Origin: a virus
Length of the DNA: 64,000 bases
IMG/VR virus record: IMGVR_UViG_3300013947_000003
Location: 32,001-96,000 of that record
Direction: 5' to 3' (one strand)
Shown: positions 3,513 through 28,820 of the stretch, in pieces
Position numbering within the stretch: position 1 is the first letter of the stretch
Layout: every line of letters begins with the position of its first letter
Made by a program: the position numbers and the translations under genes
The notes under the pieces: generated by a model
The model's input: only the letters and a program-made list of their open reading frames with translations
What the model was told of the DNA's origin: nothing
Database searches by the model: none

Positions 3513-3524
3513 AATGATTAATTA

Positions 3525-4430: not shown

Positions 4431-4517
4431 ATATAAATAATAAAGAAGTTAATAAATAAGTGATCACTGCACAAAGGTATTATTTATATGTCAAAATTAA
4501 CAACAATGCTAAACAAC

Positions 4518-4552
4518 AAAGGCAATACTCTGTATTATAGAATATTGCCTTT
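4518..4552 (-). terminator. hairpin downstream of amidase gene
   Basis: aaaggcaata ... tattgccttt, a 10-bp stem 11 nt after TAA 4563. The T-tract is weak. Confidence 0.45.
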
Positions 4553-4562
4553 AGTATTGTTT

Positions 4563-4973: not shown

Positions 4974-5259
4974 ATTTATTTATATATAAATCTAAATCCT
5001 TTTTATACCAAAATAATTCTTTAAAGCCCGCTTGTTTCATTCCTTTAGGCAATCTTCCTTGTCTAACATAATTATCAAAAGAAGCCCTACTGATATTTAA
5101 ATATTGGTAAGCCTAATATTTACTCAGTCTTTCTTGTTTATCAGAAAGAACTCTTAAAGATTTTAGTATTTGTTCTTCTTCCTCTTTTGTTAAATCACAA
5201 CTTCCTTTATCTATATTTTCTATAAAACCTTTTAATAAATGTCGGATTATTTTTAACAT
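4957..5259 (-). CDS. small HTH (excisionase/MerR-like) DNA-binding protein
   Basis: ...LSKY(TAG)AYQYLNISRASFDNYVRQGRLPKGMKQAGFKELFWYKKDLD. The only ATG is at 5259. It overlaps both neighbours and ends at TGA 4957. Confidence 0.4.
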
Positions 5260-5620
5260 AACTATATAATAAATAAAATAACATAATTCCTGTAATTATA
5301 ATATGAAAAACAAATAGATGAAAATCCGAAATATTAATTCCTATATGATAATCAATTAAGTTTAAAGTTTCTATAACAAATATATACCATAAAAATATTT
5401 TATGATATGTACAAAATCTAAAAACAATTGCAGATACATATATAAATACCCAGGGTAAAAAAGACATTCCACCAAGACAACTTAACAGCCATGTATCTAT
5501 ATCAAAATAAGCAAATAAAGTGTTGAAGAAATAACATAAAGCTCCTAATATTGGAATTAGCTTTAGTAATTTCAACAACACTTTATATAAAATCTTATTT
5601 AAGTTTTCCTCCTTTAGCAT
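5207..5620 (-). CDS. multi-pass membrane protein (holin candidate by position)
   Basis: Track ORF with about 4 hydrophobic helices, adjacent to the amidase and lipoprotein genes. Confidence 0.5.
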   Translation of the reverse strand: MLKEENLNKILYKVLLKLLKLIPILGALCYFFNTLFAYFDIDTWLLSCLGGMSFLPWVFIYVSAIVFRFCTYHKIFLWYIFVIETLNLIDYHIGINISDFHLFVFHIIITGIMLFYLLYSYVKNNPTFIKRFYRKYR

Positions 5621-5658
5621 ACTATCCTTTCTTTAGTCCTGCTTTCGGAGTTAGAGGC

Positions 5659-6051
5659 TTAGGCCTTCTTGTCTTTGTTTTTGTTTTTGCCATTTTCATC
5701 TTTTTTAGGCTAGCTCATAATTCTAAGCTAGCAGGTTAAATCAGTACATATTTGAGTAGTTAACTATATTACCGCAGTTTTAAGATCTTCAAGTTCTCTC
5801 TTTAAATTATCATTATCCTATCTTAAAGTGACAATTTCAATACGAAGTTCCTTGTTTTCCTATAGTGCAGTATCCAATCTTTCTTTATTGTCGTTACTTA
5901 ACTTTTCATAAAACTCTAAAGATGCTTCCATATTACTTATTACTGAATTATCTACTTCACTATTATATTTCTTTCTTGCTAAAAACCATGATAACCAGCT
6001 TCCTGCTGTAGTAGAAACTACTCCAATTACTGCTATAATAATTTCAGTCAT
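5659..6051 (-). CDS. N-terminal TM plus coiled-coil protein (spanin-like)
   Basis: Track ORF 5860-6051 continues through 5 in-frame TAG to TAA 5659. It has a TM helix and then the heptad region ENKELRIEIVTLR.DNDNLKRELEDLK. Confidence 0.5.
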
Positions 6052-6055
6052 CGGA

Positions 6056-6442
6056 TTAAGATTTTTTTAGTTTATACCATGTTATTGCGGCACCTCCTAT
6101 TATAAATGCAGCACCTAACCACATTAATAACTTTTGATACCATTTAATTTTATTAACTTCTTTCACTTCAGTTTTTGTTATATATATCGGCGTTTCAATA
6201 GAGTCTTTCTGTATCATAGTATCAGTATGATTTAGATATTTATAAATGTACTTATACTTATATAAGTACAAGGTATCACCATTTACAAATCTGTCAATAC
6301 TATCATGAACATATATACTGTCTATTTTTAATGTATTTATATATTCTGTTTTTACTTTTTCTATAGGAACTTCTTTTTCTATTATTTTAGTAGACCCACA
6401 AGCAACTAGAAAAACAAGAATAATTATTAATAAATATCTCAT
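6056..6442 (-). CDS. lipoprotein with C-terminal hydrophobic helix (outer spanin-like?)
   Basis: MRYLLIIILVFLVACGS lipobox. Track ORF. Confidence 0.6.
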   Translation of the reverse strand: MRYLLIIILVFLVACGSTKIIEKEVPIEKVKTEYINTLKIDSIYVHDSIDRFVNGDTLYLYKYKYIYKYLNHTDTMIQKDSIETPIYITKTEVKEVNKIKWYQKLLMWLGAAFIIGGAAITWYKLKKS

Positions 6443-6465
6443 AGTTTGTTTTTTGTATACATTAT

Positions 6466-8004
6466 CTAATGTAACGTTCCATTATATACATTAGGTTCCA
6501 CAATAATTATATTGTCTTTATGGGTTACCATACTTCCGTTGCCTCCAAGGGGACTGCTAGACTTTCCTGTAGGAATTCCTTTAGATATGTTTTTAAATGT
6601 CATTTTAGATGCTTTAGTATTAAACATTGCAGTATTTAAGTTTTCACACTCAAAATCTATTGTACCTAAATAAACAGATCCGTCTTCATTTCCATTTTCA
6701 AAACATCTATTATAATAACAACACACCAGCTTTATACTTTGTTCATCAGACAAATAATTTTTAACATAAGTTATTCTAGGTAATGCTCCCTATAAATGTC
6801 CCCCTGCAGTATTTATTTTAATAGGAACTAAAGGTTGATCTGCATTACCATTAATACCGTCAGTAATAGTACTGCATAAAGGATCTATAATATTTCCTCC
6901 AAATCCTAACCAAAACAATTTATTATACTAGTTTCCGACATTACCCACTGCACGTATTACATAAAATATATGTCCAGATTCTGTGATTGTAAAATCAGGT
7001 TCAGAAACTAAAGTAGTATTACCATGTAATATAGAGGGCGTAATTGTAGCATCCCATTCTACTCCTGAAAAATCAGCTAGTTTCATTCCATCAAAAGTCT
7101 CAAAATCTTCAGTATGAACCAAATATATAGATCTCCAACAACCATCTGCAGAAAAATTTAATCTGTTTCTTGCGTAAGCCATAAAGTAATACAGCTTATT
7201 AAATTTGATTACTTTATTAGTGGGTATAACATGCATGTTATTGATAACAAGGTCTAAATCTTTAGATGTCCAAGTTTTACCACCATCTATAGATTTATAT
7301 AATGTTGTTATTTGGTCGCTTGTAAACTTTAGAGATATTATAACTTCGTTAAGCTCTTTATCTGTAAAATTAACACAGACGCAGTCTCCAAACATACTTG
7401 CAGCAGCATTGGGAACCTCATTATCATATATAAGTTCTTCAGTAGTATTTTCGTATATTTTATAAACTCGGTCTCTATAATTAGTTATAGAGTATAAAGT
7501 AGCTTTTTCCTGTCTTTCAAGTCTATACAAATACTGTTTATCATAGTATTGGTCTTCTCCTACTATATATTCCCAAGAAGGACTCCAAGGAGTTGTCTAT
7601 TTAGTAGCATCAACTTTATTAAAATACTTTATATCTTCTTCAATCTTTTCATTAATACTATCAATATCTTCTGCTTGTTTTTCAACTTTAGAAGTAAGAG
7701 CCTTAATAGCAGTGTTTAGAGTATTTAATTTATTATCAGTATTTGTTTTCCAAACATTTAATTCCTATATGGCTGCTTTATTGTCTGAAATGTCTTTTTC
7801 AATAGTTTGAAAATGAAAAATAGTATCTTGAAGGATATTATCCTTAATTGTGCTAAGATTAACTCTTACATTTTTAGCATTCTACACTATTACTATAGAG
7901 TCCTCATCTTTAATAGAACTTTTTAAATCAAACTCTAAATCTTTAACTCCTTTAGAATTTAACCATTTTTCTATTTTCTCTAATTCTAATCTTCCTAAAA
8001 ACAT
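6466..8004 (-). CDS. tail fibre/spike protein with BNR (Asp-box) propeller-like C-domain
   Basis: ATG 8004 to TAA 6466, checked codon by codon: 5 in-frame TAG (7882, 7765, 7597, 6928, 6790). N-terminal coiled coil. Asp-box SIDGGKTWT. Confidence 0.65.
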
Positions 8005-8717
8005 TATTCTACAGCTATTAATTGTATTTTTATTTTTCGACTACCATTATTAATAATACTACTAGTATCAGTCATTTTGGGAATGGTTACTTGCAAATAT
8101 GCTTTAGTTCCAGCAGTTGCAACTCCTTCTGAGTTTTTCCAACTTGAAGTAATAACATCGCTTTTATATACGCGTTCTCTGTCCTAAGTAAGTACATCCC
8201 CCACTTCATGTTTACACCATATTACTATAGGTTCTAAAAAATAGTCTTGTATTCCTATATAAGGAGCACTATTCCAATAAATACTATACCCATTAAATTC
8301 TTTTATATCAGACTAGTAATCATACAAACCATTATTCAACATAGGTACCGCCACAGTTTTAGAACTTCCTACTTTTAGGTCTTTAAAAAAGTTTCTAATA
8401 CCAAGAGTAAATACAGGCATTGTTAGTTGATCATATTTAGAAGCATAACTAGCACAATCTCTTTTTGATATATAATTCGCATTAATACCTTTTACCTCAG
8501 TTTCTAAAGATGATACACTATACACAAAGTCATCCATATTTCCTACAGGGGACCAGCTACCGTCTATATAATGGTAGATTATATCATTATCAGAATGTAA
8601 CTCATAAGATTCTTCATCCTAATCGCTTTTTATTTTCTGTTTACCTGCTTTTATCCAAAGTACATTTGTTTGTTTGGGAGGATTGGCAGAATATATAATA
8701 TTTTCGTACTTTATCAT
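8004..8717 (-). CDS. tail-fibre-like protein (shared N-terminal module)
   Basis: ATG 8717 to TAA 8004 (TAATG overlap with the next gene), 3 in-frame TAG. The N-terminus MIKYENIIYSANPPKQTNVLWIKAGK parallels that of 8720-9502. Confidence 0.6.
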
Positions 8718-8719
8718 AA

Positions 8720-9502
8720 TTAATCTATTAAGGTTACTATTACTTTATTCAAACTTGCATTTGCTTCAATTTCAGTCACACTATAAAACTCTACCTTAAT
8801 CCTTTTTTGTATATGTTCTACACTACTACCAACATCAATAGTAGTTTCTGTAATATATGTAGGTCTTAATTCCTAACTATAATTAGTTTTAAAAGCAAAG
8901 TTTGTAGAAGTAAAATCTAACTTACAAGGAACTCCTGTTTGTGTATTACCACTTAAAGTATTTGTTATGATTATATATGGAACATGATAATAATAAATTG
9001 CTTTTCCCACAGCTTCCCATTTATTATTGCTGGTAATAGTGGGTGTTATAGCAATATCACGTGTGATGCTAACTGTATCCATAGAAAGTTCATGAAGGTT
9101 ATCAATCTAAATTACAGGTATAGCCAAAGAAGACTCAGTGCCTTTATAAGTAGTAAAGTTGTCACTAAGCACATTAACACTGTTATTAAGGGTAGTAACG
9201 GTATTATTTACAGTAGTAACAGTATTATTTACAGAAGTAATAGACTCTTTAATATTGTCCGTCTCACTTTGAAGAGTTACAATATCTTCTTTTATACCTG
9301 ATATATAGTCAGCCGTATCATCCGCATTATTTACAGACCTCCAATTTCCGTCTACAAATTGATACAGTTTACTCCCAGGATATTCACTTTTATCCTCTTC
9401 AGGATTTTGTAAAGATTCAACGTATTTACCTGCTTTTATCCACAAAACATTATGTTCTTCAGGAGCTTTTTTTGAATATACTATATCTTTATATTTTATC
9501 AT
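8720..9502 (-). CDS. tail-fibre-like protein (shared N-terminal module)
   Basis: Track ORFs 9107-9502 and 8873-9082 are joined by TAG (9107, 8873). Ends at TAA 8720. N-terminus MIKYKDIVYSKKAPEEHNVLWIKAGK. Contains TVNNTVTT repeats. Confidence 0.6.
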
Positions 9503-11904
9503 TTACTATTAGTATTAGTAGGTTTATTTATTTGCTTTAATTTAAGAGCCTCATCGGCTTTATTTTTACGTTTAGTTTCAGCTAATTTATCTTTTTCTAA
9601 TTCCTATTTAGAATTAAACTATCTAATTTTTTCGTCAAGTTCAGCTTTTGCTTGTTCCGGATCTTCTTTATAGAAATTCTAATTAGCCATAGATTCAGCA
9701 TTTATTTCTGCAACAAGTATTCTGGTTTCATTGTCTCTTTGATTTATGGAATCTTTAAGTTCCATTTCTGCCTATTTTTGCTGCGCTTCCTGCTGTATTT
9801 GTTGCTGTGCCAATTCTTGTTGCTGTTGCTATTGTTGCTATGCTCTCTATAACATGTCTTCTTCATTCTTTTGGACCATTCTTTGTTTCTCGGCTAATGA
9901 AGTACTATTGTATAATTTCATAATAGTAGAGAAGTTAAGTGTTTGATTCTATAGGGCTGCCTATGCTAGCATATCTAACTTTTGTTTAAGCTCCTGCATA
10001 CCATCACTATTATCAACAACTAAACCATAGTCAGCTTCAGCAAACTCATCACCATCAATTTCAGTAACTTTCATAGTATTATCTGCTAATAAATACTAGA
10101 ACTTCTTACTTCTTCCTTTAAGTGCAATTTTTGCAGTTTCTAAAAAGCATTCTAAAGCTCTTCTTTTAACATCGTCATGGACCATAAACAGCCATTCAGT
10201 AATATGAGAAGACTGTAAAGTAGCCCTTTCCACACCACCAACAGTTTCTCTATTACTAATCTAGCCTTCTCTTTGTCTAGAAATGCCTGCAACATCAGAC
10301 ATTTCCTACTTAATATACTCCAATAGATTTACATATTGCTATATGGTATTACCAACATCTGCGTTAAATGCTCCCTGTTGTGCATTATTTAAAGCCCCTG
10401 AAAGCTTTCCCATAGCTGCTCCTGAATTGCCTTCTTTAAAACTATCAGAAACAACAATACCGGAAGTTTTAGCAAAATACATCCACTTTTCTATATCCCA
10501 TCCAGTAGGAACTTTGGCTAAATCTAGATTAATTAGAACACCCCAATTTCTAGCAAGTAGTTTATTAAGTCTGTCGTGTATAACATCATATAAGTAATTA
10601 TATGATTTCATCTTATCAACTAAAGAAAATGGTTTTGAATCATTAAGATTATAAACAGATCCTACAATACCAAAATGGCATCTTGAAGGATTGGAGAGTC
10701 TATTATACTAAACTACCCTAGGACGCATATTTACATAAATATCTGTGCCTATTTTAGTTCCTTCCCAAGCTTCATTTATATAAAAAACTGTTTCTTCCTC
10801 ACCCTCTTCTGTTTTTGTTATATAAGTTTCCGGATAAAAATTAAATACTTCTTCACCTGTTTCTGGATCATAAGATTTAACTTTTTTTATTTTTCTTCTA
10901 GATTTCCAATAAACTCTAAGAACCCTTATATTACCATTCATATCAAAAGGAAGAAGCGAATCATTAACTCCATCAAGTTCTCCTGTAATATTAGAAAAAA
11001 AATCAGTTTGGGAATTAAATGTTTCACCTAACATAGAACCATTTATAAATCCATATCTTTCATCTATATTATCCATAGAATCAGTAGATCCTTGCCCCAA
11101 ATTGTCAGGCATTTCTTCTATATACTCTCTGTCCTTTTCTGACAATACATCATAATAAGTATCTATTATCTTCCCGGGGCTCCAATAATCCTCAAGTATT
11201 ATAATATCTGCATCTTCTAATCTATTAGAATATCCAGATCTAAATGCGCGTATTTTTAAAGGGTTTATTCTTTCAATGACGGGTTCTCCACCAACAATAT
11301 CACATTGATATATTTCTTCACCAACAGTCATTCCGTCCATAAATCCTTGGTTAAATATCAAAGGCATGTTAAGTTCCTTAACATAGTGGTGTAATAATGA
11401 ATTGGCCCTTATTTCTCTCATATCTTGCCATTCTAGAGAAAAATAATCTCCCATCTATTGAATGCGTTGATTAAACTCTTCCTCAGAAGAGGAAGTATCC
11501 TAAACAGCTTTTTGAAGTTCCTAATATATTTGATCCCTTTTATTGTTTTCTATTTCAGATATAGAATTAGGATTTGTAATAACAACTCTATAATCAAATA
11601 CTCTGGCAGATTCTTCGCCTCTCAGAACATCTAGTTTGCTATTCATGATAGGATAGTGTTGTATTTTATCAGGAATAAATCCAGCCTGAAGATGCTCGGG
11701 ATTTAATATCATCATAAGGTCACTCATATGAAGTTTACCATTAATTAAATCATAATTAATCTTCTTATGAATAACACTGTTCCTAACAGGTGAATAGTTG
11801 AAAAATGTCTTAGAGTCTGCCCAATCACAATGAAGTTTACGCCATTTTTTATTCTTTTTATTAAATGGCAACTATTGTGGGGGTAATTTAACAAAATTAC
11901 TCAT
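9499..11904 (-). CDS. portal protein
   Basis: ATG 11904 to TGA 9499 (2406 nt). Three track fragments and the gaps between them join through 18 in-frame TAG; 9499-10710 was checked codon by codon. Support: about 800 aa, adjacent to the terminase, and a podovirus-connector-like core. The C-terminal tail is poly-Gln. Confidence 0.7.
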
Positions 11905-11983
11905 ATATCTTTCAACTTTAAATTTTATACAAAGGTATCATATAATAAACAAATACACAACATAATAATTATTTTATTAACTA

Positions 11984-14221
11984 TTATAAAGTATTAAGTT
12001 TAAACTGTCTATAATTTTTTTCAAAGAATGGGTCTATCTCAAGTCCTTTAGGTTTTACCTAAGCTCTTCGCATATCCCCTTGATATAATATCATCTTTTC
12101 TTCTCTAAAGAGCATTAACTAAACTAATGACATCAATCTATCAACATTTATATCAGGGTTAAATAATATAAGTTCTTTTAGTAAAGCTCTATTTTTAATA
12201 AATGATAAATTAGGCACAGTATAAGAAACTTCATGACCATTCTATTCTTCATTTATAGTAACAGGCTTTAATAACCAATCTCTAATTAAAGTTAGTCCAA
12301 AGTTTTTAATAGGTACTGTTGCCTAAACTCCCTTACTAGAATTACCAAAATTAGAGGACTTTATCAACTATTTATTCCTTAAATATTCAGGTGTATCAGC
12401 CAACATGTACAAACTATTAGTTCTACTAAAGTAAGAAAATGTGTTCTTTTTATTACTTTCATAGAGTAATTGACAATTATAAAATAAACATATCTTTCTA
12501 GCTATCTCATTTAAATCATCTACAAACATAGGTCTGCCTGTGTACTCTGCAACTATTCTATCAGTCCATAGGTCCATTACAAACAAAGAACCTAAAGACA
12601 TTGTATTAGATTCATCATTTTCATAATTATCTAGAGATGCTATATACCTATCCTATGGAATCTTACCTTGTACTTCCTAAGGCATTTCAAATATTTCTAA
12701 AGCTCCGGTACTTTTATTATCCTTTAATGGGAAGTCTCTAATAGGTTTATCATAACTAGGCTAGAACTCTACTTCATGTTTTTTATTAAATACAAGATTT
12801 CCTATATAAGTATCATCGTAGAAATTAGGGTTATTATCAATTTCATTTAATCTAGCTGTTAATTCTGTTATAGGAAATATATTGCCTTTAGCTCTCTGAA
12901 TAGCTTCCTACGGTGTTATAGGAATTTCAGCAATACGTTTAGTAATAGCATTAATATTAGTTGAATTATATTTAACAAGATACCTATCTTTTAGTATTTG
13001 TACTAATGCCTTAATAACATCGCTATTACCATCTTTATCATAACAATCAGCCCTATTTAAATATCCAGGAAAAAAGTATGTAAACTATTTCCTTCCCTAT
13101 CCCTCTTTATCATAAATATTATCAATCCCTAAAACATTGTAGCCTTTAGGATTATACATAAGTTCCTGCATAGAACTAAAGTCAGAGTCATTATCACCTG
13201 CTGTACCCCAAGCAGCAATAATTCCCCACACACTATCACCATCTTCTACAGAAGGCCTTAATACCTACCATAGATTTAATAACCTAGGGAACGTGCCACT
13301 CTCCTCGATTATATATAAAACTCCTCTAGAACCTCTAAGTTTAGATTCATCATCTTTAGAAGTAATACCCATAACACTATTTTCTGTACCCATTCTAACA
13401 CCTGTTTCAACATCTAAATAGCCCATAGTCCATTGCATATTCTAAAGACTAGATGTTAATCTTCTAGAGGGAAATTGAGTATTACTAGCACAGAAATCTA
13501 TATAATACTAAAACATGTCTAGAATCTAATTAGCCCCTTGTATATATTTTCTTTCAGATGCAGTTACGACACACTATACTTTCTTATTTACTTCGTAACC
13601 TTCTCCTAATATAAATCTTTTAGCTAACAAAGAAGCACCACAAAAAGACTTACCACAACCACGTCTTGATAGTTCCATATAATGATGTCCTCGATCTCTA
13701 CACTATTGTAAAAAATGAAATTTATAATAGTGCCCTTCCCAAAATAATGGCATACCTACAGAACGTATTGTTTTACCTTTTGCATCTTTTTTTATAAGCT
13801 ACATAGGGCAGTAGTTTAAAAAGAAATACATATCACCGGTAATCCACTCACCATCAGATGGCCTTACATACCCTTCATAGCATCTTCTAATTTCCTCTCT
13901 AATCCATTTACCAAATTCACTATTAGGATTAGCATTAGGTTTTAAATCTGTTAGTCTTCCTGTTTTCTAAAAATGTATTGCTGTGGGTCTAAAATAATCC
14001 GTATCTTCTAATATGTGGGGTTTTGTTATGTCAATAATGATTTTACCTTCTTCATCTCTAGGAAGATCTTTAGCATAGGGTCTATCAGCAGAAATTAGCT
14101 TTTTTATATAAGGAACATTATTAATATAATCAAAGAACTGCTCCTTAACTTCTTCATTCATAGAATCAAGCAGTTCCTAAGTTATACTAGTCTAGCATTT
14201 ATTTAATCGAAAGTTCTCCAT
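11984..14221 (-). CDS. terL: terminase large subunit
   Basis: Checked codon by codon from 14161 to 11984: 19 in-frame TAG and zero TAA/TGA over 726 codons. Walker A LSRRGCGKS and a WGTAGD-type nuclease half. An upstream ATG at 14221 adds 20 codons (2 more TAG). Confidence 0.85.
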
Positions 14222-14489
14222 TTAATACCAGTTTTATTATTTCTTGTATTATATATAAATCAAACTTTTTCTAAAAACTCTCTAAGGAAGTGGTTGATAC
14301 TTTATCTGTTTTAGTAAACCTTTCTATAAGCTCTCCTTTACTTTTAGTTATTTCATACAACTCCCCTGTGAAAGTCTTAATAATCTTCATTGTAGAATGT
14401 GTCTCCATAGTTTTTCTAACAACAAGATTTTTACCAACTGCTTTCCCTATAGTATTTATTACTTCATTAAAGGTTAAGTCCATCTTCAA
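14199..14489 (-). CDS. small protein upstream of terL (small terminase by position only)
   Basis: Track ORF 14271-14489 continues past TAG 14271 to TAA 14199. Confidence 0.4.
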
Positions 14490-15015
14490 ATAACTTTTTT
14501 TCGCCCGAACCTCTCATTTTTCCTGAACTAACCATTTCAGTGGTAATGGCTTTTTCTGCATCTGCAAGGTCCTTAACTAATTGTGGAATCATTTTAATAG
14601 TAGAGGTTATACTATTTATAGTATAAATAGGCTTTCCTTTATCATCTGAGGCATTAAGATCAACATCTCTAAGGAATGTTCTAACCTTATCTACTGCAAT
14701 ACGAGTATCCTCAAGAAGAAGCGCAGAGGGGGATTTAAAGGACTCATAAAACTACATAGCTTCTTGAACTTGTTTATCAGGTTTCCAATCCTTTAATCCC
14801 TCTCCCTCTATAACTGCTTTTGCCCTTTCTTTTGGGTCAATAATATATTGATAATCACTTCTAGGATCGCACATAAAATAAATATAAGCCAATTCCTAAA
14901 GTGCTTTATTTTTACCATTAGTTTTATCTCTAGACCATATTAATTTGAATGGCTTAAGCATTAGTGCTTCTTCCGAGATAACAACTTTATATGCATCATA
15001 TTTAAACAACTTCAT
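14467..15015 (-). CDS. hypothetical late protein
   Basis: ATG 15015 to TAA 14467 (549 nt), 2 in-frame TAG. Own translation: MKLFKYDAYKVVISEEALMLKPFKLIW... Confidence 0.5.
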
Positions 15016-15030
15016 AAATAATAAATTAAA

Positions 15031-15054
15031 AAAGCCTCTCAACTGAGAGGCTTT
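15031..15054 (-). terminator. rho-independent terminator
   Basis: aaagcctctc-aact-gagaggcttt, followed on the minus strand by a T-rich run. It lies 6 nt after TAA 15060. Confidence 0.7.
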
Positions 15055-15059
15055 GTCCT

Positions 15060-15470
15060 TTAAAGAATAATGTCTTTATTAGGATGGATAATTGAAGTAT
15101 CTTCAGTTTCCTCCCATTCTTCTACTACAAATTCTATATCTCTGTCCTACAGTAGTAAACAGGGCTTATTATCAATTACAACAATATCAAATCTATATTC
15201 AATAACCGGATTGTCTGATATAATACCGTCTTTAAGACTGCCGTCTTTATGCTTTTTGATTGCAAATCTGTTTGGGTTTATTGAGACAAGATCTCCTACT
15301 TTAATGCCTCTAACAGAATCTCCAACAGCTAATACTTTTTGATACTCTTTTACAGTACCTGCTTTTTTTGTAACATCTATAATATTTCCTATTTTACCAT
15401 CTTCCTCATATACATCCATAGTTGTAACAAGGGCAGTAAACATAGGTTTAATTTTTTTTACTATCAACAT
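15060..15470 (-). CDS. GroES/gp31-like co-chaperonin candidate
   Basis: Track ORF 15147-15470 continues past TAG 15147 to TAA 15060. The pattern IKP..ALV...Q.VLAVGD.V.GIKVGDLV resembles Cpn10. Confidence 0.45.
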
Positions 15471-15690
15471 ATGCTTTTATTCTTTTATATTTATCATAAG
15501 GGCAAGCTAACTTACCTAATGATGGAATATTAAAACTAGTAGTTAATTTAGAAAACTCTTCCTCTGATAAGTTTTCTTTTAAAGGTAACTCTTCTATGTG
15601 TTTTCTAATACATAGCCAAAAGGCTTTATAGGTTTTCTCCACCACATTTACTGGTAAATTTAACTCTTTTGCTATCTCTTCTATAGTCAT
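15448..15690 (-). CDS. hypothetical (HTH-like) protein
   Basis: Track ORF with overlapping gene junctions. Confidence 0.5.
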   Translation of the reverse strand: MTIEEIAKELNLPVNVVEKTYKAFWLCIRKHIEELPLKENLSEEEFSKLTTSFNIPSLGKLACPYDKYKRIKAYVDSKKN

Positions 15691-16070
15691 TCTGTAAAAT
15701 CAAATAACAGCATAAACTTAAAATTACCCTCGTCTTTTGTAATATTAGGTATGAATTTAGGATTTATTTTATCATCTATAATGATCTTCTTATCCCTAAG
15801 TTTAGACATTATAACCTGAAAATGAGAACTTGTAATACCACAATCTTCTCTTACAGCCTTTTTAATCTCCTCACTCATTAATACCCTATTAAGTAATTCC
15901 TCACTTGTAATATTGAGGCTTAATTGATACCTGTGTTTTACAAATGAGGAAATTACTTCAATCTCTCTATTTGTGAGATTATGAAAGGGCTTAAGAAACT
16001 CAAACCAATATTTAAAGAACTTTTCTTTTGTAGTGGGAATCCTAACAACATTGTTAATCTTCCCTAACAT
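15687..16070 (-). CDS. hypothetical protein
   Basis: Track ORF with an ATGA-type junction to its neighbour. Confidence 0.5.
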   Translation of the reverse strand: MLGKINNVVRIPTTKEKFFKYWFEFLKPFHNLTNREIEVISSFVKHRYQLSLNITSEELLNRVLMSEEIKKAVREDCGITSSHFQVIMSKLRDKKIIIDDKINPKFIPNITKDEGNFKFMLLFDFTE

Positions 16071-16071
16071 A

Positions 16072-16329
16072 TTATTCTTCTGCTTGAGTTTCTTCTTTTA
16101 CAGGAGTCATAATCTCAACAATCTCCTTAACACACTTATCTACAAATTCCTTATCAAAGCTAATTTCATTTTCAATTACCTTAAAAAGATAATCAAGACG
16201 CTTAAAAAGAGTAGTAGTGCTAAATTGTTGAAGTTTATTATATAATGCATTATTATCCTGCTGAAGCTGTTCTGCAACTGCTTTAAGTTGTTCGTACGTA
16301 AGCTCCTTTACTTCTTTATTATCTTCCAT
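16072..16329 (-). CDS. hypothetical coiled-coil protein
   Basis: Track ORF. Confidence 0.5.
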   Translation of the reverse strand: MEDNKEVKELTYEQLKAVAEQLQQDNNALYNKLQQFSTTTLFKRLDYLFKVIENEISFDKEFVDKCVKEIVEIMTPVKEETQAEE

Positions 16330-16332
16330 TGC

Positions 16333-16563
16333 TTATAAAGTATTATTTAAATATTTAAATCCGTATTTATTTTTATAAAGAGTTTCCCACTCTTTAATAT
16401 TTAATTCTCCTGTATCTGTTCCTCCACAGTTATCACAGTATACAAGATCGTCTAAGCCCATTCTGAGTATCCTTAAAGACAAGCATTTCTTACAGTATAC
16501 AACAGGTTCCTCATCATACTTTGTAGGCTCCTTGAATTCTAAAGTATCAATTGGTTCCTCCAT
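16333..16563 (-). CDS. zinc-ribbon protein
   Basis: CKKC...CDNC four-Cys pattern. Track ORF. Confidence 0.5.
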   Translation of the reverse strand: MEEPIDTLEFKEPTKYDEEPVVYCKKCLSLRILRMGLDDLVYCDNCGGTDTGELNIKEWETLYKNKYGFKYLNNTL

Positions 16564-16723
16564 CTTTATAGTATACTAATATAAAACTACCATTTTCTTT
16601 GACTAAAGATACTATGTCTTCTCTTTTAACATTTAGGTTATTTGCTTTTACTACCAACTATCGAATATTAGTTGCAGATATGGCAGTCATAACCTTTCCA
16701 TCTTTAACCATAGGTTCCATCAT
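16547..16723 (-). CDS. hypothetical small protein
   Basis: Own translation MMEPMVKDGKVMTAISATNIR(TAG)LVVKANNL... ATGA overlap upstream. Ends at TGA 16547. Confidence 0.4.
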
Positions 16724-16902
16724 TTCTTTATTTTACCGCCTGAAGCCATCTTCATAGCATTGGCTCTTCTTTCTAATGCTGCTGCTTGTGCTTTAGCGGC
16801 CTTAATAGCAGCATTCTTTCTACTAGGACTATTCATAATTTCCTAGTATTGTGCTAATGTATGAGCATCACTTTCAGCTTGCCATTTTTTATCAATTTTC
16901 AT
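16720..16902 (-). CDS. hypothetical small protein
   Basis: MKIDKKWQAESDAHTLAQY(TAG)EIMNSPSRKNAAIKAAKAQAAALERR... ATGA overlaps at both ends. Confidence 0.4.
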
Positions 16903-17081
16903 CTTTTTACACTTATTTTATTAAGTTCATCATAGAAATTTAGTACAAACTACTCATTTTCTAGTGAGTGTATTTCTATAATTTTATCTATAAAGTTAAG
17001 ATCGTCTAGTATAGCCAGCATGGCATGTTTAAGATATTCAATACTGGGCTTATTAAAATTATCAAGAATAGTCTGTTCCAT
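16899..17081 (-). CDS. hypothetical small protein
   Basis: MEQTILDNFNKPSIEYLKHAML...ENE(TAG)FVLNFYDELNKISVKR. Ends at TGA 16899. Confidence 0.4.
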
Positions 17082-17095
17082 AATATTAAATTTAG

Positions 17096-17168
17096 TCGCC
17101 CCACTCAGAGTCGAACTGAGATCTTCAGATTTAGAGTCTGTAGTAATAAACCGTTATACTATAGGGCA
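17096..17168 (-). tRNA. suppressor tRNA, anticodon CTA (reads TAG); probably Gln-accepting
   Basis: Hand-folded 73-nt cloverleaf. Acceptor TGCCCTA/TGGGGCG (2 G-U pairs). Anticodon stem CAGA/TCTG with loop C-T-CTA-A-A. T arm CTCAG-TTCGACT-CTGAG. U1 and a weak 1:72 pair, as in bacterial tRNA-Gln. Confidence 0.85.
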
Positions 17169-17172: not shown

Positions 17173-17406
17173 TTAAAATATATATTTATACATTAGTATA
17201 TAAAAAGCAACTGCTAAGAACTGCCCTACTATGCCCCCTGCTAATGTCATTAAAATATCCAGTTCGTCAAATTTATTTCCATATTGCTTGTCTTTAAATT
17301 CCATTCCTATGGCCAAGCCTAATACAAATAATATTGTGCCAATAAATCCTGCAGGTATTGCATAAAAGAAATGTTTGTTCCTGTTACTTTCCGTAAACCA
17401 ACTCAT
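17173..17406 (-). CDS. small membrane protein
   Basis: Track ORF with 2-3 hydrophobic helices, lying between tRNA genes. Confidence 0.45.
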   Translation of the reverse strand: MSWFTESNRNKHFFYAIPAGFIGTILFVLGLAIGMEFKDKQYGNKFDELDILMTLAGGIVGQFLAVAFYILMYKYIF

Positions 17407-17421: not shown

Positions 17422-17486
17422 CGGTTCCTAGTAGATTCGAACTACTATCTTCCATTTCAGGAGTAATACCATTATACTAAGGAACC
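17422..17486 (-). tRNA. tRNA-like element with truncated anticodon arm (pseudo-tRNA?)
   Basis: Acceptor GGTTCCT/AGGAACC, a D arm near-identical to the suppressor's, and T arm AGTAG-TTCGAAT-CTACT. Only about 12 nt (tcc-tgaaat-gga) occupy the position of the 17-nt anticodon arm. Confidence 0.35.
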
Positions 17487-17566: not shown

Positions 17567-17638
17567 TCTCCCCAGAAAGACTCGAACTTTCAATGTGGGA
17601 TTAGAAATCCCAAGTTATATCCCTTTAACTATGGGGAG
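17567..17638 (-). tRNA. tRNA-Arg (anticodon TCT)
   Basis: Perfect cloverleaf. Acceptor CTCCCCA/TGGGGAG, D stem GTTA/TAAC, anticodon stem TGGGA/TCCCA with loop TT-TCT-AA, T arm GAAAG-TTCGAGT-CTTTC. Confidence 0.85.
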
Positions 17639-17704
17639 CTTAATCAGAGTATTAAGATGCCACAAAGTAAAGTATAATATTTTAATTATACAAATATTTT
17701 AACA

Positions 17705-17890: not shown

Positions 17891-17941
17891 ATATATATTA
17901 AAATTAAAGGGTATAGGGTTAAAGCCCCATACCCTTATATA

Positions 17942-18514
17942 TTATTGAATATTTACAAAATCTATCATTAAAAATTCTTTATCAGTGCCTTCCTCTATAT
18001 TCTTTTTATTATTAAACTTAGCATATATCCAAGGCCACCAATCATCTAAATAAGTCCCTGTACATGGAGTACCTAGAGTATTGTTAGATGAATACTTATC
18101 CTCATAAGTAGGATTATGTTTAAATTCATAAACTACTGTCCAAGACTCTTTGTCAATACCTCCACAGAACTTTACTCTAGGATACTTTTTTACTAAAGTA
18201 TCACAGTAATGCTGAAAGAGTTGTATATCCTCTTCATCTAATTTCCTTTCTAGAACTAGTCTAACATAACAATTTCTTTTCTTATTAAGGAAGTCTAAGA
18301 ATGTTTCTATATCTCCTTTATAAGCCATAAGACCATGCCTTATTTCTACATTAAAATCCCTATCAAAACTAATCCTAAAATCAAAAAATCTAATACCTAG
18401 CTTATACTGCTCCTCTATAGATTTACTTTGACACCTTGCTACAAATCTAAAAGGATATAGATACCATTTCTTAGGAGGTAAATATGTTAGAGAATTGTGT
18501 GATGCTATGATCAT
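17942..18514 (-). CDS. PI-PLC X-domain-like phosphodiesterase
   Basis: N-terminal IIASHNSLTY and GIRFFDFRI resemble the PLC-like phosphodiesterase TIM-barrel signature. Track ORF. Confidence 0.5.
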   Translation of the reverse strand: MIIASHNSLTYLPPKKWYLYPFRFVARCQSKSIEEQYKLGIRFFDFRISFDRDFNVEIRHGLMAYKGDIETFLDFLNKKRNCYVRLVLERKLDEEDIQLFQHYCDTLVKKYPRVKFCGGIDKESWTVVYEFKHNPTYEDKYSSNNTLGTPCTGTYLDDWWPWIYAKFNNKKNIEEGTDKEFLMIDFVNIQ

Positions 18515-19275
18515 CTTATAATAATATTTTTTGTAGAAAATCCTTCTTTTATTTGTACTTTAGGAAGTATTGTAACTGTATAATCATACCCGATGCCATT
18601 ACATATAGCATTTGGATTGGTTTCTGTAATATAGAATGTTTCTCTTCCTGTAGTATAATTTGCTAGATCCTAGCATTCTGTACTTATACTATAACCTCCA
18701 GAACTTTCTGTAAACTGATCAGATGTGGTTAAAGTTGCTACAGTACTTAGTACACCTATATTAAAATCTGGGGAATATGAGTTATAATATAAAAATGAAT
18801 ATTTATTACTAAATAATTCAGTCCTACTTAATATTAAATTTGGAGAAGTGTCTTTTTGGTAGTCTAGAAGATTTTTATAAGAATCATTATGATCTGGTAC
18901 CCCTATATAAACATTTGCTGTAAGTTTTACTCCTTCAGGGAAATCATTTCTTAATACCTGTATACCCCGATATATTCTAAAATTATCACCTTCTACATTG
19001 CCTGCCAGCATCCCCGAATAATTGTCAGCAAAGGGAAGATTTGAAGTGTCAGTACTTGGAATAACAGTTTTAAAGTAATCACCTATTACAACAGTATATA
19101 TATCATCTTTATCTATATAATAAACAGGATCAGTAATAGCAAAATTGGCTTTTGGGCTATCATCTCCAATACTATCAAGAACTTCCCAATACTTCAAATT
19201 ATTCTTCTGCTCTTCAAGACTACCACCACCAGAGACAATAGTCTTACCATTTCTTTTACCTATAATATGTTTCAT
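18511..19275 (-). CDS. first late-strand gene, function unknown
   Basis: Track ORF 18670-19275 continues past TAG 18670 to TGA 18511 (ATGA overlap with the next gene). Confidence 0.55.
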
Positions 19276-19761
19276 CTTTTACTTAATTTTAAGCATATTA
19301 TTAGCGTTCCTATTAATCAACCTTTATTATAAAAATTAGAGATTATAGAGAGACCTGCCCCACTTTTCGCCAAATTGGGAGCCTGGCATAGGTAATTATA
19401 GCCCTTGGGGCGTTTATATAATATTAGTCTACCTCTCTTATCTCTAGCTTCCATTTACCTCTGCCCTACTACTAGTACCCTTTATTCTCCTAGGTTGGCC
19501 GGAAGACCCGCAGACTATAATTACCTCATCTCTAACACTCTATGGTGTTTAAAGGCTATGTGATTAACAGTACTTGACCGTTCACTTCTTATAAGAAGCA
19601 CTGCAAAGTTACATAAAATATTTTTAAAAAACAAACTATTAATAAAATCCTAATAATACTATTAATGAAAAATGTTCAATGTTTAGAATATTAACACTTA
19701 TTAAATTTCTTTTCTAGAGTAGTTAAAATATGTATATCACTGTTAATAATTTAATTTTTTA

Positions 19762-26316: not shown

Positions 26317-26781
26317 ATGGAGTACATTTACAAGATGACTTTAGTGGCAGGTGGAACCACTATCTGTACAAGAAAAGTAAGAACAAAAGAAGAAGGTGAA
26401 TTTCAAGCAAAAGAAATTCTAAAAAACAGACAAGATGTAGTAAAAGTGGAATACTATATCAAAGAAGGAGAAAAAAATAAATGTAATCCTTCGAAAGAAG
26501 AAAAAGTATATAACTACATACTCAAAACGTACTCACAGTTATACGAAACTCCCCTTAAAAAATACCCTAATGTATCTACATTAGCGGTTTTTGGTGCTAC
26601 ATCTAAAATAGTAGATGATATAGAGAGCTATCTTAATATATCTTTTAATGGAGATAGGACATCTTTAGAAGAAGGAGCTCTCTTCATACGCAAACATATA
26701 GAAGACCTCTATAATGCAATAGAAAAGTATAAAATGGACCTCTATAATGCCGACATAGTCGATATTATAGACACATATTAA
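26317..26781 (+). CDS. hypothetical protein
   Basis: First ATG after tRNA-Leu, in the frame of track ORF 26242-26781. Confidence 0.55.
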   Translation: MEYIYKMTLVAGGTTICTRKVRTKEEGEFQAKEILKNRQDVVKVEYYIKEGEKNKCNPSKEEKVYNYILKTYSQLYETPLKKYPNVSTLAVFGATSKIVDDIESYLNISFNGDRTSLEEGALFIRKHIEDLYNAIEKYKMDLYNADIVDIIDTY

Positions 26782-26947
26782 ATGACGTCCTACTTTCTTG
26801 TAGGAACATGTACTATGTTACAGCAGTACTAAAAAAGTCCCAGAAGATGTTGGTGACAAAGCAACCTTCTTAAAATCTATCTGCTACATCGACACTTTGT
26901 CCGTATGAGATGTATGATAGAGGTTAGAGACAATTGGTACTCTAACA

Positions 26948-27044
26948 GACTATATAGTTTATGTGTTAAAACATTCTTATATTACCTATGTGAAAAGTGC
27001 ATGGGGTTATAAGAAAGAAGTAAGTTCGCAACTTACTGTAGTCG
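26948..27044 (+). tRNA. tRNA-like gene with 32 nt between the anticodon-stem halves
   Basis: Acceptor GACTATA/TGTAGTC, D stem GTTT/AAAC, T arm GTAAG-TTCGCAA-CTTAC. Anticodon stem TTCTT (26974-78) and AAGAA (27011-15) enclose 32 nt instead of 7. Confidence 0.4.
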
Positions 27045-27063
27045 CACTTCATTTTGTAATAAT

Positions 27064-27183
27064 AGGTATATAGTTTAACTAAAGTAAAACACCATTACAG
27101 TCTATTTTTAGAGTGTTAGTTTGATTTTTTGTTGGCCATTGTTTTCAGTAATGGAGATATAGGTTCAAATCCTATTATACCTT
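27064..27183 (+). tRNA. tRNA-like gene with 44-nt insertion flanked by CCATT direct repeat
   Basis: Acceptor AGGTATA/TATACCT, D stem GTTT/AAAC, T arm ATAGG-TTCAAAT-CCTAT. CCATT occurs at 27092 and again at 27136, and AATGG at 27150. The loop next to the second copy is gttttcagt. Confidence 0.45.
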
Positions 27184-27243
27184 CTATATAAGTATCGTTT
27201 TTAGATTGTTAAAACTAGTGGTACGTGAGTATAGCTAGTATAT

Positions 27244-27317
27244 GGTCCTTTAGCTTAGTTGGTTAGAGCACCTGACTCATAATCAGGGAGTCGTAGGTTC
27301 AAGCCCTACAAGGACCA
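27244..27317 (+). tRNA. tRNA-Met/Ile2 type (anticodon CAT)
   Basis: Canonical cloverleaf GGTCCTT...CCTGA-CTCATAA-TCAGG...GTAGG-TTCAAGC-CCTAC-AAGGACC-A. Confidence 0.9.
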
Positions 27318-27363
27318 CTTCATTGTATTGTTGGTTTTAAGTGAAACAATTGGTTATTAACCA

Positions 27364-27431
27364 GGCTCTTTAGTTTAATGTAAAACATTCTATAGTATAG
27401 AAAGATGTAGGGTCATATCCTACAAGAGCTG
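27364..27431 (+). tRNA. tRNA-like gene with 5-nt anticodon loop
   Basis: Acceptor GGCTCTT/AAGAGCT. T arm GTAGG-GTCATAT-CCTAC. The anticodon arm TTCTA-tagta-TAGAA is 15 nt instead of 17. Confidence 0.35.
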
Positions 27432-27490
27432 CAAAAATTAAGTGTTTTATAACATTTTGATTAACATTTTGGTCATATTCACTTATTTTA

Positions 27491-27527
27491 CCTTGCGGTT
27501 CGTGAGAATAGCAAGGTTTTATTTTTT
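27491..27527 (+). terminator. hairpin plus T-run after tRNA cluster
   Basis: ccttgc-ggttcgtgagaata-gcaagg followed by ttttatttttt. The loop resembles that of a second hairpin at 27214-27239. Confidence 0.55.
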
Positions 27528-27547
27528 AACTTAAAACACAAAAGATT

Positions 27548-27736
27548 ATGGAAAAATGGATAATTAAATTAAGTAATAACGCATTTGCTTATATAGCAAA
27601 TAACACCTTATATATCAAATATAACTTTGAAGAAGCATCTATGTTTGATACTATAGGTGATGCATGGAAAGCTGCAATATTTGTAAACAAATTGCTAAAT
27701 ACAAATGCTGTAGCAGTATCTTACTATGTACATTAA
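27548..27736 (+). CDS. hypothetical protein
   Basis: Track ORF. Confidence 0.5.
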   Translation: MEKWIIKLSNNAFAYIANNTLYIKYNFEEASMFDTIGDAWKAAIFVNKLLNTNAVAVSYYVH

Positions 27737-27937
27737 AGAAAGGAAATTCTATAAATCACTGTTTGGTATATTACTATAAATATACCAGAAGAGTTAACTT
27801 CTTTAAAAAATCTCTAGCAGATAGTTCATGCAGTAAGGTGTGAGGGCTCAACTCCCTAGAAGAAAACATAGTAGAGGAGTTTTCGATAAATTGTTTTAAA
27901 ATCTACTATCTCGAATATTCATTTAAAATTAATATAT

Positions 27938-28129
27938 ATGAAACCTACTAAAAGTCAATTAAAAAGTTTAAATTTTTGTGTTATTACCTTAGGAGAACCT
28001 TTCTATGGTAACATTAATAATAAAGATGAAGTTCAGGAGTATCTAGATGAGCATTTAGAATGGGCTATAGATGCTGCTGAACAAAAAATAGATATAATGA
28101 CTAATTTCTTAAAACAACTAGACAAATGA
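27938..28129 (+). CDS. hypothetical protein
   Basis: Track ORF. Confidence 0.5.
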   Translation: MKPTKSQLKSLNFCVITLGEPFYGNINNKDEVQEYLDEHLEWAIDAAEQKIDIMTNFLKQLDK

Positions 28130-28446
28130 AAAGATGGACAGAAGAGGAAAAAAAAGCCATCATAGATGGGGTTTCCTCACATCCCGAGAATCTAACAAAA
28201 TGTTTTATCACTTTATCTTCACAAATGGATAGAAGCTTCTGTGCAATATGCCAAATGTGGTATCAAATGCAAAATCCAAAAAGTCCTCATTATATAGGAA
28301 CAAGAACTGCATTTGTACTATTAGGCAAAAGCAGTGTCTATAGAGGAAAAGTAAACAGAAACAACTCTAAAGAAACAATTAACGTTAAACCAACACTTTT
28401 ATATAAAGTAATAAATGCAATTAAAAAAATATGGAACCAAAAGTAA
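28126..28446 (+). CDS. Myb/SANT-like DNA-binding protein candidate
   Basis: The MKRWTEEEKKAIIDGV pattern. Track ORF with an ATGA junction. Confidence 0.4.
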   Translation: MKRWTEEEKKAIIDGVSSHPENLTKCFITLSSQMDRSFCAICQMWYQMQNPKSPHYIGTRTAFVLLGKSSVYRGKVNRNNSKETINVKPTLLYKVINAIKKIWNQK

Positions 28447-28820
28447 GTATTACATTTATAGTACCAGGTGCTCAAATGTACTCAGAACAAAAATGTAAAG
28501 ACAACAAAGCATTCGAACAAACAATTGTTAACACAGAATACTACACAGGAAGAGGAAAGGAGAAGAAGAAAAACAAGGAAAAACTTGTTATATATTCTCG
28601 AGGAAACAAGCCTGCAAAACATCATTTGAACATATGTAAAGAAACATACGATCATATGATAATGCCTGAAGGTATTCCTACTATAGAAAACTGGACCAAA
28701 AAACATTCAAGATATGTATGGTCTCAGTATTCTAAACAGCAACGTTTGGAAACACATATAAAACTTATAGCAAAAGAGCTTAATGCTCTTAGCTTTACAT
28801 ATGAAATATTAGATGACTAG
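28431..28820 (+). CDS. hypothetical basic protein
   Basis: Track ORF. Ends in TAG, which overlaps the start of the next gene. Confidence 0.5.
   Translation: MEPKVSITFIVPGAQMYSEQKCKDNKAFEQTIVNTEYYTGRGKEKKKNKEKLVIYSRGNKPAKHHLNICKETYDHMIMPEGIPTIENWTKKHSRYVWSQYSKQQRLETHIKLIAKELNALSFTYEILDD

Follow-up and report, generated by a model that had tools for sequence, protein, structure and literature searches.

A predicted glutamine-type amber suppressor tRNA in the tRNA-array slot of a crAss-like phage whose late genes appear to read UAG as glutamine

The presence of a tRNA gene with the anticodon CUA, here tRNA(CUA), among the late genes of a phage raises the question of whether UAG is read as an amino acid in that phage and, if so, as which amino acid, in which genes, and when during infection. 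The question was addressed for a 64,000-nucleotide stretch of viral DNA (positions 32,001 to 96,000 of IMG/VR record IMGVR_UViG_3300013947_000003; hereafter the window), representing 64 kb of a ~95-kb genome, of which about one third lies outside. The sequence evidence makes it highly probable that tRNA(CUA) is a Gln-accepting amber suppressor, by which UAG in the virion, packaging, and lysis genes of a crAss-like phage is read as Gln (genetic code 15). The gene and its anticodon are located as follows:

17096..17168, minus strand: tRNA(CUA), predicted Gln-type amber suppressor (ARAGORN, Rfam RF00005, family covariation, acceptor stem)
17132-17134, minus strand: anticodon CUA of tRNA(CUA) (ARAGORN and Rfam, same register)

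A preliminary description of the locus, made from the sequence alone, had proposed an amber suppressor on the basis of a hand-folded cloverleaf, and both prediction programs agree with it on position, strand, and anticodon register. ARAGORN found four tRNAs in the window, including a 74-nt tRNA at 17095-17168 (minus strand) with anticodon cta, and the Rfam family RF00005 matched 17096-17168 on the same strand across the full model (positions 1-71; 52.4 bits, with 29 as the gathering score, and E = 2e-8). In the Rfam alignment, the 5′ half of the RNA reads UGCCCUA-UA-GUAU-AACGGUUUA-UUAC-U-ACAGA-CUCUAAA-UCUGA and the 3′ half reads AGAU-CUCAG-UUCGACU-CUGAG-UGGGGCG-A. The canonical 7-nt anticodon loop (C32-U33-C34-U35-A36-A37-A38) and the standard T arm (CUCAG-UUCGACU-CUGAG) of the preliminary description are both present, as is its U1 start with a weak 1:72 pair, which is a U1.G72 wobble; the discriminator is A73, and CCA is not encoded in the gene. 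The D loop has 9 nt and contains G18G19, the variable loop has 4 nt, and the anticodon stem has 5 bp. The RNA has the canonical features of an elongator tRNA (7/4/5/5-bp stems, U33, G18G19, G53-T54-Psi55-C56, and A58), along with two non-standard pairs (U13.U22 and A27.A43) and a U6.G67 wobble.

Thermodynamic (minimum-free-energy) folding of tRNA(CUA) alone was not significant (z = -1.16). In a family alignment of 25 sequences, comprising 22 related phage tRNA(CUA) genes and three tRNA-Gln, 96.8% of the cells were paired under the cloverleaf and changes on both sides were seen at 17 of 21 pairs; this covariation was reached by none of 500 shuffles, and controls in which the structure was slid were 41-53% paired. 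Thus, the cloverleaf is strongly supported by family covariation and not by folding energy.

The window has a G+C content of 31% and is assigned by its sequence matches to a crAss-like phage (Crassvirales, Steigviridae/Asinivirinae-like). The closest GenBank phage matches were the crAss-like cr116_1 (Pamirivirus), cr128_1, and a Kolpuevirus, all Steigviridae/Asinivirinae, with the best match at ~74% nucleotide identity in the terminase-portal region over 38% of an 11-kb query. Relatives comprised 42 IMG/VR loci found through the terminase gene, TerL, together with GenBank relatives; the TerL of the closest relative, L034 from IMG/VR, is 95% identical to that of the window. IMG/VR contig IMGVR_UViG_3300045988_177920 is among the close relatives. 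There are 30 window proteins with matches in Bacteroides phage crAss001, and their order is collinear, though mirrored. On the minus strand, from low to high coordinates, these are homologues of gp31 (whose gene in crAss001 lies directly upstream of the major capsid protein gene), the holin-like protein, portal, TerL, chaperonin, HU, the VpsT-like regulator, and the Zn-finger factor; on the plus strand they include HKD nuclease, helicase, primase, DNA polymerase I, ThyX, and the gp50 virion RNA polymerase.

The long open reading frames (ORFs) added up to 15.3 thousand codons, the longest having 679, and to 23.4 thousand, the longest having 1,609, with TAG read as sense; ORF length rose under this reading only. 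The late blocks together contain 143 in-frame TAG codons, located in conserved late genes that are intact only with TAG as sense, and no late gene ends in TAG, as in genetic code 15. This pattern indicates that UAG is read through in the late genes of the window. The blocks and genes concerned are:

691..17081, minus strand: structural/late block; 25 genes, 93 TAG (39% of Gln-type codons), stops all TAA or TGA
54387..63374, plus strand: virion-polymerase block; five genes, 50 TAG (42% of Gln-type codons), stops all TAA or TGA
26317..54387, plus strand: replication/nucleotide-metabolism block, standard-code-compatible; 43 called genes, four TAG (2% of Gln-type codons), stops TAA or TGA
11984-14221, minus strand: TerL; 21 TAG
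9499-11904, minus strand: portal; 18 TAG
5659-6051, minus strand: holin-like gene (holin/lysis-regulator, crAss001 gp28 homologue); five TAG in 130 codons
16899..17081, minus strand: first gene downstream of tRNA(CUA); in-frame TAG at codon 44 aligns to Gln in the relative L016 (tblastn)
18511..19275, minus strand: gene upstream of the tRNA array; one TAG, codon 202 (18670-18672)
21519-21521, 23901-23903, 25081-25083, 28818-28820, 40948-40953: TAG stops of early/middle ORFs, a direct TAG-TAA tandem included

The gp50 homologue carries 47 TAG in two pieces (30 and 17), and the five TAG codons of the holin-like gene fit the reported bias of lysis genes toward recoded stops. In the replication block, three TAGs are close to the 5′ end of the ORF as called and probably precede its true start, and the fourth is a terminal TAG directly before TAA. 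The early/middle ORFs that end in TAG (n = 5) have a backup TAA or TGA 0-16 codons downstream, the distance being 2-16 codons in the four that belong to the early region and the start of the plus arm; early/middle genes therefore read alike under either code, and these ORFs would be barely altered under an active suppressor. The TAG that the preliminary description had placed in the first late gene, 18511-19275, upstream of the tRNA, was found there; the frame stays open past it and ends in an ATGA overlap with the next gene, and the L034 homologue has Tyr at the site in an open frame, so that read-through of this single TAG is plausible. Since the tRNA acts in trans, its position downstream of this gene poses no gene-order paradox. 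A polarity rule, under which genes are TAG-free upstream of the tRNA and TAG-rich downstream, was rejected: it holds in the window and L034 but fails in L025 and L043, where TAG-rich genes (41 and 11 TAG, respectively) lie upstream of tRNA(CUA) on the same strand.

To identify the amino acid, the TerL and portal proteins of the window, with X at each TAG, were aligned to 40 relatives without internal TAG in those genes. Gln made up 48.7% of the residues opposite TAG in these standard-code relatives against a background of 4.4%, an 11-fold enrichment, and 44.4% of those opposite the CAA and CAG codons of the window, a profile equal to that of the TAG sites. Gln was the majority residue at 24 of 39 TAG sites; Glu and Lys were the next commonest, but at background level. 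These alignments argue that TAG specifies Gln in the late genes of the window.

Whole-sequence similarity did not assign an isotype to the tRNA: in an identity ranking, phage tRNA-Thr and tRNA-Arg scored 0.70-0.72, as high as tRNA-Gln, and tRNA-Asn also equalled tRNA-Gln. An acceptor-stem search that left the anticodon free was therefore needed. The acceptor stem and discriminator (UGCCCUA/UGGGGCG, A73) agree with cellular tRNA-Gln everywhere but at position 72. In IMG/VR, the pattern UGCCCUAU...GUGGGGCGAC matched 21 stretches, on contigs of 8 to 179 kb, and all 18 ARAGORN tRNAs that start with the stem, in its G72 version, have the anticodon CUA. In GTDB, searched with one genome per species and with A or G at position 72, the matches listed include at least 44 real tRNAs, all of them tRNA-Gln (35 CUG, 9 UUG) with U1-A72 and A73; they are mostly from Bacteroidota (Odoribacter, Butyricimonas, Paludibacteraceae, Marinilabiliaceae, Chitinophaga, and Flavobacteriales), with some from Oscillospiraceae, and the remaining stem matches are chance occurrences in GC-rich coding DNA. 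Because the stem belongs to tRNA-Gln only among the cellular tRNAs listed, the stem and discriminator of the phage tRNA are of tRNA-Gln type, mostly that of Bacteroidota. The Gln identity proposed in the preliminary description thus draws on two independent lines, the alignment of TAG sites to Gln and this tRNA-Gln-only stem. Of the identity elements named there, U35 is kept, whereas the E. coli-type G73 is not: A73 was found, with C3-G70 in place of G3-C70. A73 does not contradict a Gln identity, since it occurs in all 54 cellular tRNA-Gln of the sampled loci and in all 25 tabulated phage tRNA-Gln(UUG).

The anticodon loop is CUCUAAA, compared with the host-type UUCUGGU, and G36, G37, and U38 of tRNA-Gln are A36, A37, and A38 in tRNA(CUA), the loss of G36 being forced by the reading of UAG. 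The suppressor of another locus, L068, is 82% identical to Bacteroidales tRNA-Gln(CUG), with an identical anticodon stem and variable region and a T arm one base off, a likeness suggesting that a host tRNA-Gln(CUG) was captured and then changed from G36 to A. Derivation from a resident phage tRNA-Gln(UUG) was considered and is not supported, as the stems of the latter differ (UGCCUCU, UGUCUCU, UGCUUCU, UGACCUU) and the suppressor fits cellular tRNA-Gln(CUG). A search anchored on the anticodon arm returned only tRNA(CUA) of unrelated ~170-kb contigs, with C1-G72. Glutaminyl-tRNA synthetase (GlnRS) was present in 13 of 14 surveyed Bacteroidetes, and gatCAB was absent in all but one, S. ruber (PMC3927822); direct charging by host GlnRS is therefore likely.

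In this lineage, the 1:72 pair of tRNA(CUA) tends to differ from that of tRNA-Gln. A U.G pair at 1:72, with any acceptor stem, was found in 21 tRNA(CUA) and no tRNA-Gln across the acceptor-stem searches and the TerL-anchored relatives, and the UGCCCUA stem with A72 was found in four tRNA(CUA) versus 13 phage and at least 44 cellular tRNA-Gln. Among the TerL-anchored relatives, for which no condition was set on the tRNA sequence, five of five tRNA(CUA) were non-Watson-Crick at 1:72 (three U.G, and two U-U with different acceptor stems) and ten of ten tRNA-Gln were U-A (Fisher's exact p ~3e-4, several of the sequences being near-duplicates); every ordinary tRNA-Gln sampled, phage or cellular, has U1-A72. 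A weak 1:72 pair is not a property of all phage tRNA(CUA), as the sample free of any stem condition was heterogeneous, with G1-C72 commonest and U1-A72 suppressors present. The association is thus limited to this crAss lineage, where shared ancestry could explain it. Two contigs of ~175 kb (L052 and L056) encode two tRNA(CUA) each, one with UGCCCUA and G72 and one with UGUCCUA and U1-A72. GlnRS must open the 1:72 pair, as is known for the E. coli enzyme, and G72 is hypothesized to compensate for the loss of G36 in charging by GlnRS. A broader proposal is tentative and rather doubtful: that conversion of a host-type tRNA-Gln to a suppressor goes with loss of the Watson-Crick 1:72 pair (U1.G72 here, U1-U72 in two other acceptor types) as a compensatory identity change, and that the late array acts as a translational gate also on the virion RNA polymerase.

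The tRNA(CUA) gene is the last member of a reduced array, in the order tRNA-Arg(UCU), tRNA-like remnant, small membrane-protein gene, tRNA(CUA), with two intact tRNAs compared with 10-23 in relatives:

17567..17638, minus strand: tRNA-Arg(UCU), the other intact array member (ARAGORN; Rfam 59.9 bits)
17422..17486, minus strand: tRNA-like remnant between tRNA-Arg and the membrane-protein gene (Rfam 45.6 bits in an E-value scan; no ARAGORN call)
17173..17406, minus strand: small membrane-protein gene (phrog_38535) inside the array; start M23, stop 4 nt before the 5′ end of tRNA(CUA)

This slot is syntenic with the tRNA array of crAss001, at the head (5′ end) of the structural arm; the order in crAss001 is gp3-gp4, the array t1(Gln)-t23, gp9-gp13 (Zn-finger factor, VpsT-like regulator), HU, chaperonin, TerL, and portal. 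In the RNA-seq supplement for crAss001, t1(Gln), t2, t3, t16-18, t23, gp4, gp9, and gp13 rise only in the TerL interval, gp102-104 rise in the first interval, and the helicase rises in the second; the text dates the classes to 0-10, 10-30, and 30-60 min (PMC8375218). By this synteny, the suppressor of the window probably belongs to the late class. The placement of the tRNA inside a late operon, as first described, is thus matched by the layout of crAss001, whose array rises with TerL, the timing in the window being inferred from that phage.

In the mechanism proposed, the tRNA(CUA) gene, held in a conserved array slot, would be transcribed with the late class as its counterparts are in crAss001. 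Host RNase P and 3′ processing would excise the tRNA, and the host CCA-adding enzyme is proposed to complete the 3′ end because CCA is not encoded. Host GlnRS would charge it through the tRNA-Gln acceptor stem and discriminator and the retained U35; the anticodon loop would have been rebuilt from UUCUGGU to CUCUAAA, its A36-A37-A38 context suiting codons that start with U, and the A72-to-G change, which gives the U1.G72 wobble, may make up for the missing G36 identity element. Once charged, the tRNA would compete with release factor 1 (RF1) at the 143 TAG codons of the late genes, and early and replication genes, which avoid TAG or back a TAG stop with a nearby TAA or TGA, would be readable under either code.

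Several points weigh against this account. G36, a major identity element for E. coli GlnRS, is absent, and positions 32, 37, and 38 are also unlike host tRNA-Gln. One 1,600-codon gene contains 30 TAG, and 95% suppression per codon would give only ~21% full-length chains. The tRNA alone may not suffice, and there may be a further factor directed at RF1; the 30 proteins scanned and the crAss001-matched proteins, in 64 of ~95 kb, included neither a release factor nor an aminoacyl-tRNA synthetase. Finally, the crAss001 intervals were assigned through genes whose class is named in the text of PMC8375218.

The alternative that survives best, although it is unlikely, concerns timing: a promoter of its own would drive the suppressor in the early or middle phase, and the code would be switched before late transcription, as in the model of Borges et al. 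The signals that bear on it are:

17663..17694, minus strand: Bacteroides-type promoter motif close to consensus (TTTG-N20-TTACTTTG, with one mismatch), 25 nt before tRNA-Arg
17907..17936, minus strand: terminator-like hairpin after gene 17942-18514 (consensus scan only)
19604..19635, minus strand: exact Bacteroides promoter consensus (TTTG-N-TAnnTTTG), in the divergent intergenic region that heads the minus arm
26157-26188, plus strand: exact TTTG-N-TAnnTTTG motif 11 nt upstream of tRNA-Leu(UAA)

The promoter motif upstream of tRNA-Arg, with the hairpin just before it, speaks for this alternative, and the hairpin may put the two upstream genes, 18511-19275 included, on a transcript separate from that of the tRNA. 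However, the number of promoter motifs in the window is at the level of chance (five matches against 4.45 expected), making these sites weak leads, and a host-type promoter would also fit late transcription by host RNA polymerase. In its published form, the model places the components of the code change in the early phase (bioRxiv 2021.08.26.457843), and the gp50 genes, with their 47 TAG, would need the tRNA in the middle phase if they were transcribed then, as gp49 and gp50 are in crAss001 (PMC8375218). Against this, the syntenic tRNAs of crAss001 are silent in the first two intervals and rise by ~11-15 log2 units in the late interval. Under the late-class reading, conservation of the crAss001 programme would mean that translation of gp50 waits for the late tRNA.

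Comparison of relatives bears on whether decoding of the phage's own genes is the main role of the tRNA. In-frame TAG was present in the TerL of L011, L016, L025, L026, L034, and L043, and all four of these loci with enough upstream flank (L016, L025, L034, and L043) have tRNA(CUA) 3-4 kb upstream of TerL. The tRNA was found in none of the 38 other TerL-bearing loci, all of them without in-frame TAG in TerL; in many of these, an array of 10-15 members begins with tRNA-Gln(UUG) instead. Recoded TerL and tRNA(CUA) therefore always co-occur among relatives with enough flank, and at similar TerL identities recoded genomes are interspersed with standard-code ones. It is improbable that the role is mainly directed against the host, such that read-through of host TAG harms host proteins, including those of defence, and phage decoding is secondary. 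This role has been proposed for crAss-like phages, some Zeta phages being described as keeping tRNA(CUA) without recoding (PMC7886860), but with TAG making up 39-42% of the Gln-type codons in essential virion genes, decoding would be indispensable, and the tRNA tracks recoding exactly in close relatives; the two roles are compatible.

The L034 tRNA(CUA) (7053-7124) is only 78% identical to the window copy despite 95% identity in TerL and 94% in the flanks; the two share the acceptor and T stems but not the D arm, anticodon stem, or T loop. The L034 copy has a non-canonical T loop (UGCAAGU) and a D loop without GG. The closest copy to that of the window, at 85%, is in L055, a 114-kb contig. The divergence between the L034 and window copies suggests cassette exchange or rapid drift.

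That TAG is decoded as an amino acid different from Gln (Lys, Glu, Tyr, Trp, or pyrrolysine) is very improbable. ARAGORN labels the gene tRNA-Pyl, but by default it gives this label to any CUA anticodon, and the tRNA-Pyl hallmarks (a small D loop without G18G19, a 6-bp anticodon stem, a 3-nt variable loop, no T-Psi-C, and pylS/pylBCD nearby) were not seen: the G18G19, T loop, and 5-bp anticodon stem are unlike those of tRNA-Pyl, and no pyl genes were present among the proteins scanned. The short variable loop rules out the bacterial Tyr, Ser, and Leu types. The whole-sequence likeness to phage tRNA-Thr and tRNA-Arg and the second rank of Glu and Lys opposite TAG would favour another residue; they are countered by the 11-fold enrichment of Gln at sites where Glu and Lys stay at background and by an acceptor stem confined to tRNA-Gln among the cellular matches listed. 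That the gene is a decaying, non-working relic of a larger array, with some other factor decoding TAG, would agree with the reduced array, the two tRNA-like remnants with damaged anticodon arms in the window, and the odd T and D loops of the L034 copy, but is scarcely credible for a copy in which every canonical tertiary position is retained and the anticodon loop is perfect, in a family with compensatory changes and exact retention in recoded genomes.

Other features of the array region were also compared. The remnant at 17422-17486 has an anticodon arm reduced to 2 bp and a 6-nt loop, and is preceded by a hairpin at 17492-17522 (minus strand; CCTCCCTT...AAGGAGGG), a motif also found before tRNA-Glu in cr116_1 and L032; hairpin and remnant together (~160 nt) are ~98% identical to L034, compared with ~94% in the flanking coding DNA. 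A second tRNA-like sequence lies at 27364-27431 (plus strand; Rfam 44.9 bits, short anticodon loop, no ARAGORN call), 46 nt downstream of tRNA-Met(CAU). The small membrane-protein gene is also embedded in the arrays of relatives. Its start at M23 is indicated by a PHROGs match spanning residues 21-88, by homologues in 10 loci that start at M23/W25, and by stop codons upstream of M23/W25 in the loci of some relatives; the apparent TAG of the longer ORF (17173-17472) lies before M23, inside the tRNA-like remnant, and the true gene is TAG-free.

Searches of PHROGs and Pfam gave almost no matches for the neighbouring small genes or for a GC-rich block at ~20000-26000. This block (39-46% G+C in a 30% G+C genome) is full of short plus-strand ORFs, nine of ten without a Pfam or PHROGs match, and 21090-21521 matches two PHROG families of unknown function; its position corresponds to the early region of crAss001, and L034 is also GC-rich there, whereas crAss001 is not. 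The anaerobic ribonucleotide reductase gene nrdD (40953-44426, plus strand) is split into 40953-41855 (ATP-cone and NRDD positions 3-156) and 43272-44426 (NRDD positions 197-560), with an HTH/NUMOD1/HNH endonuclease ORF between them (41925-43037), an arrangement that resembles an intron with a homing endonuclease. Similarly, the gp50 virion RNA polymerase homologue (54713-63374, plus strand) consists of two ORFs, 54713-59515 and 60411-63374, which are separated by a LAGLIDADG endonuclease ORF (59652-60299) with no TAG, compared with 30 and 17 in its flanks. The L034 TerL (10001-13255) is a single frame of 1,084 codons versus 745 in the window, owing to an in-frame insertion of ~340 codons with an intein-like appearance. 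In another crAss-like contig, L015, ARAGORN called a tmRNA (1880-2269, minus strand; tag peptide ADNTEYRIAA) upstream of the tRNA region.

For annotation, these results mean that TAG must be read as sense, as the standard code fragments the terminase, portal, holin-like, and virion RNA polymerase genes. To the TAG-to-Gln recoding already known in crAss-like phages, the locus contributes a clean case for comparison: its cellular tRNA-Gln acceptor stem points to host GlnRS as the charging enzyme, its late production, as suggested by crAss001 synteny, would differ from the published early-code-switch model, and it sharpens the question of whether a suppressor, unaided, outcompetes RF1 at 30 TAG codons in a single gene.

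Among known systems, the ‘code change module’ of Jade phages is described as a suppressor tRNA and an aminoacyl-tRNA synthetase as well as a release factor upstream of the lysis cassette (bioRxiv 2021.08.26.457843). As in the module so described, the suppressor tRNA of the window precedes recoded structural and lysis genes in the direction of transcription; unlike the module, the window has no synthetase or release factor among the proteins scanned, its tRNA lies in a remnant array ~11 kb upstream of the holin-like gene, and the recoded codon is TAG, read as Gln, where the module has TGA, read as Trp. It is established that Beta/Steigviridae, Delta, and Zeta crAss-like phages recode TAG to Gln in late genes and encode suppressor tRNAs (PMC7886860; bioRxiv 2021.08.26.457843), metaproteomic evidence for TAG as Gln has been reported for crAss-like phages (PMC9523058), and recoded and standard-code members are described as interleaved at short phylogenetic distance (PMC7886860). 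From the parts of these accounts that treat code 15 crAss-like phages (Yutin et al., 2021, PMC7886860; Borges et al., bioRxiv 2021.08.26.457843; Peters et al., 2022, PMC9523058), nothing essential differs in the window, which shares with them TAG in late, structural, and lysis genes, standard-code replication genes, a phage tRNA(CUA), and alignment of TAG to Gln. Beyond what those parts describe, the new elements here would be the cellular-type tRNA-Gln stem with an A72-to-G change, the Asinivirinae tRNA-array slot, and the correspondence of that slot to a late-class slot in crAss001.

The tRNA resembles Bacteroidota tRNA-Gln(CUG/UUG) in 13 of 14 acceptor-stem positions, U8, G10, A73, and a short variable loop, and Bacteroidales tRNA-Gln examples in that CCA is not encoded; it is unlike Bacteroidota tRNA-Gln in its CUA anticodon, positions 32, 37, and 38, G72 in place of A72, a longer 9-nt D loop, and the U13.U22 mismatch. 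The E. coli suppressor supE (glnV44) is a tRNA-Gln in which the anticodon CUG has become CUA by a single-base chromosomal change; it is charged by GlnRS and inserts Gln at UAG in competition with RF1, with partial suppression. The phage tRNA likewise has a tRNA-Gln body with a CUA anticodon, but it differs from supE in a rebuilt loop (C32, A37, and A38, where the host has U32, G37, and U38) and in G72, as well as in A73 and C3-G70 where E. coli has G73 and G3-C70, and the genome that it serves uses TAG routinely as a sense codon.

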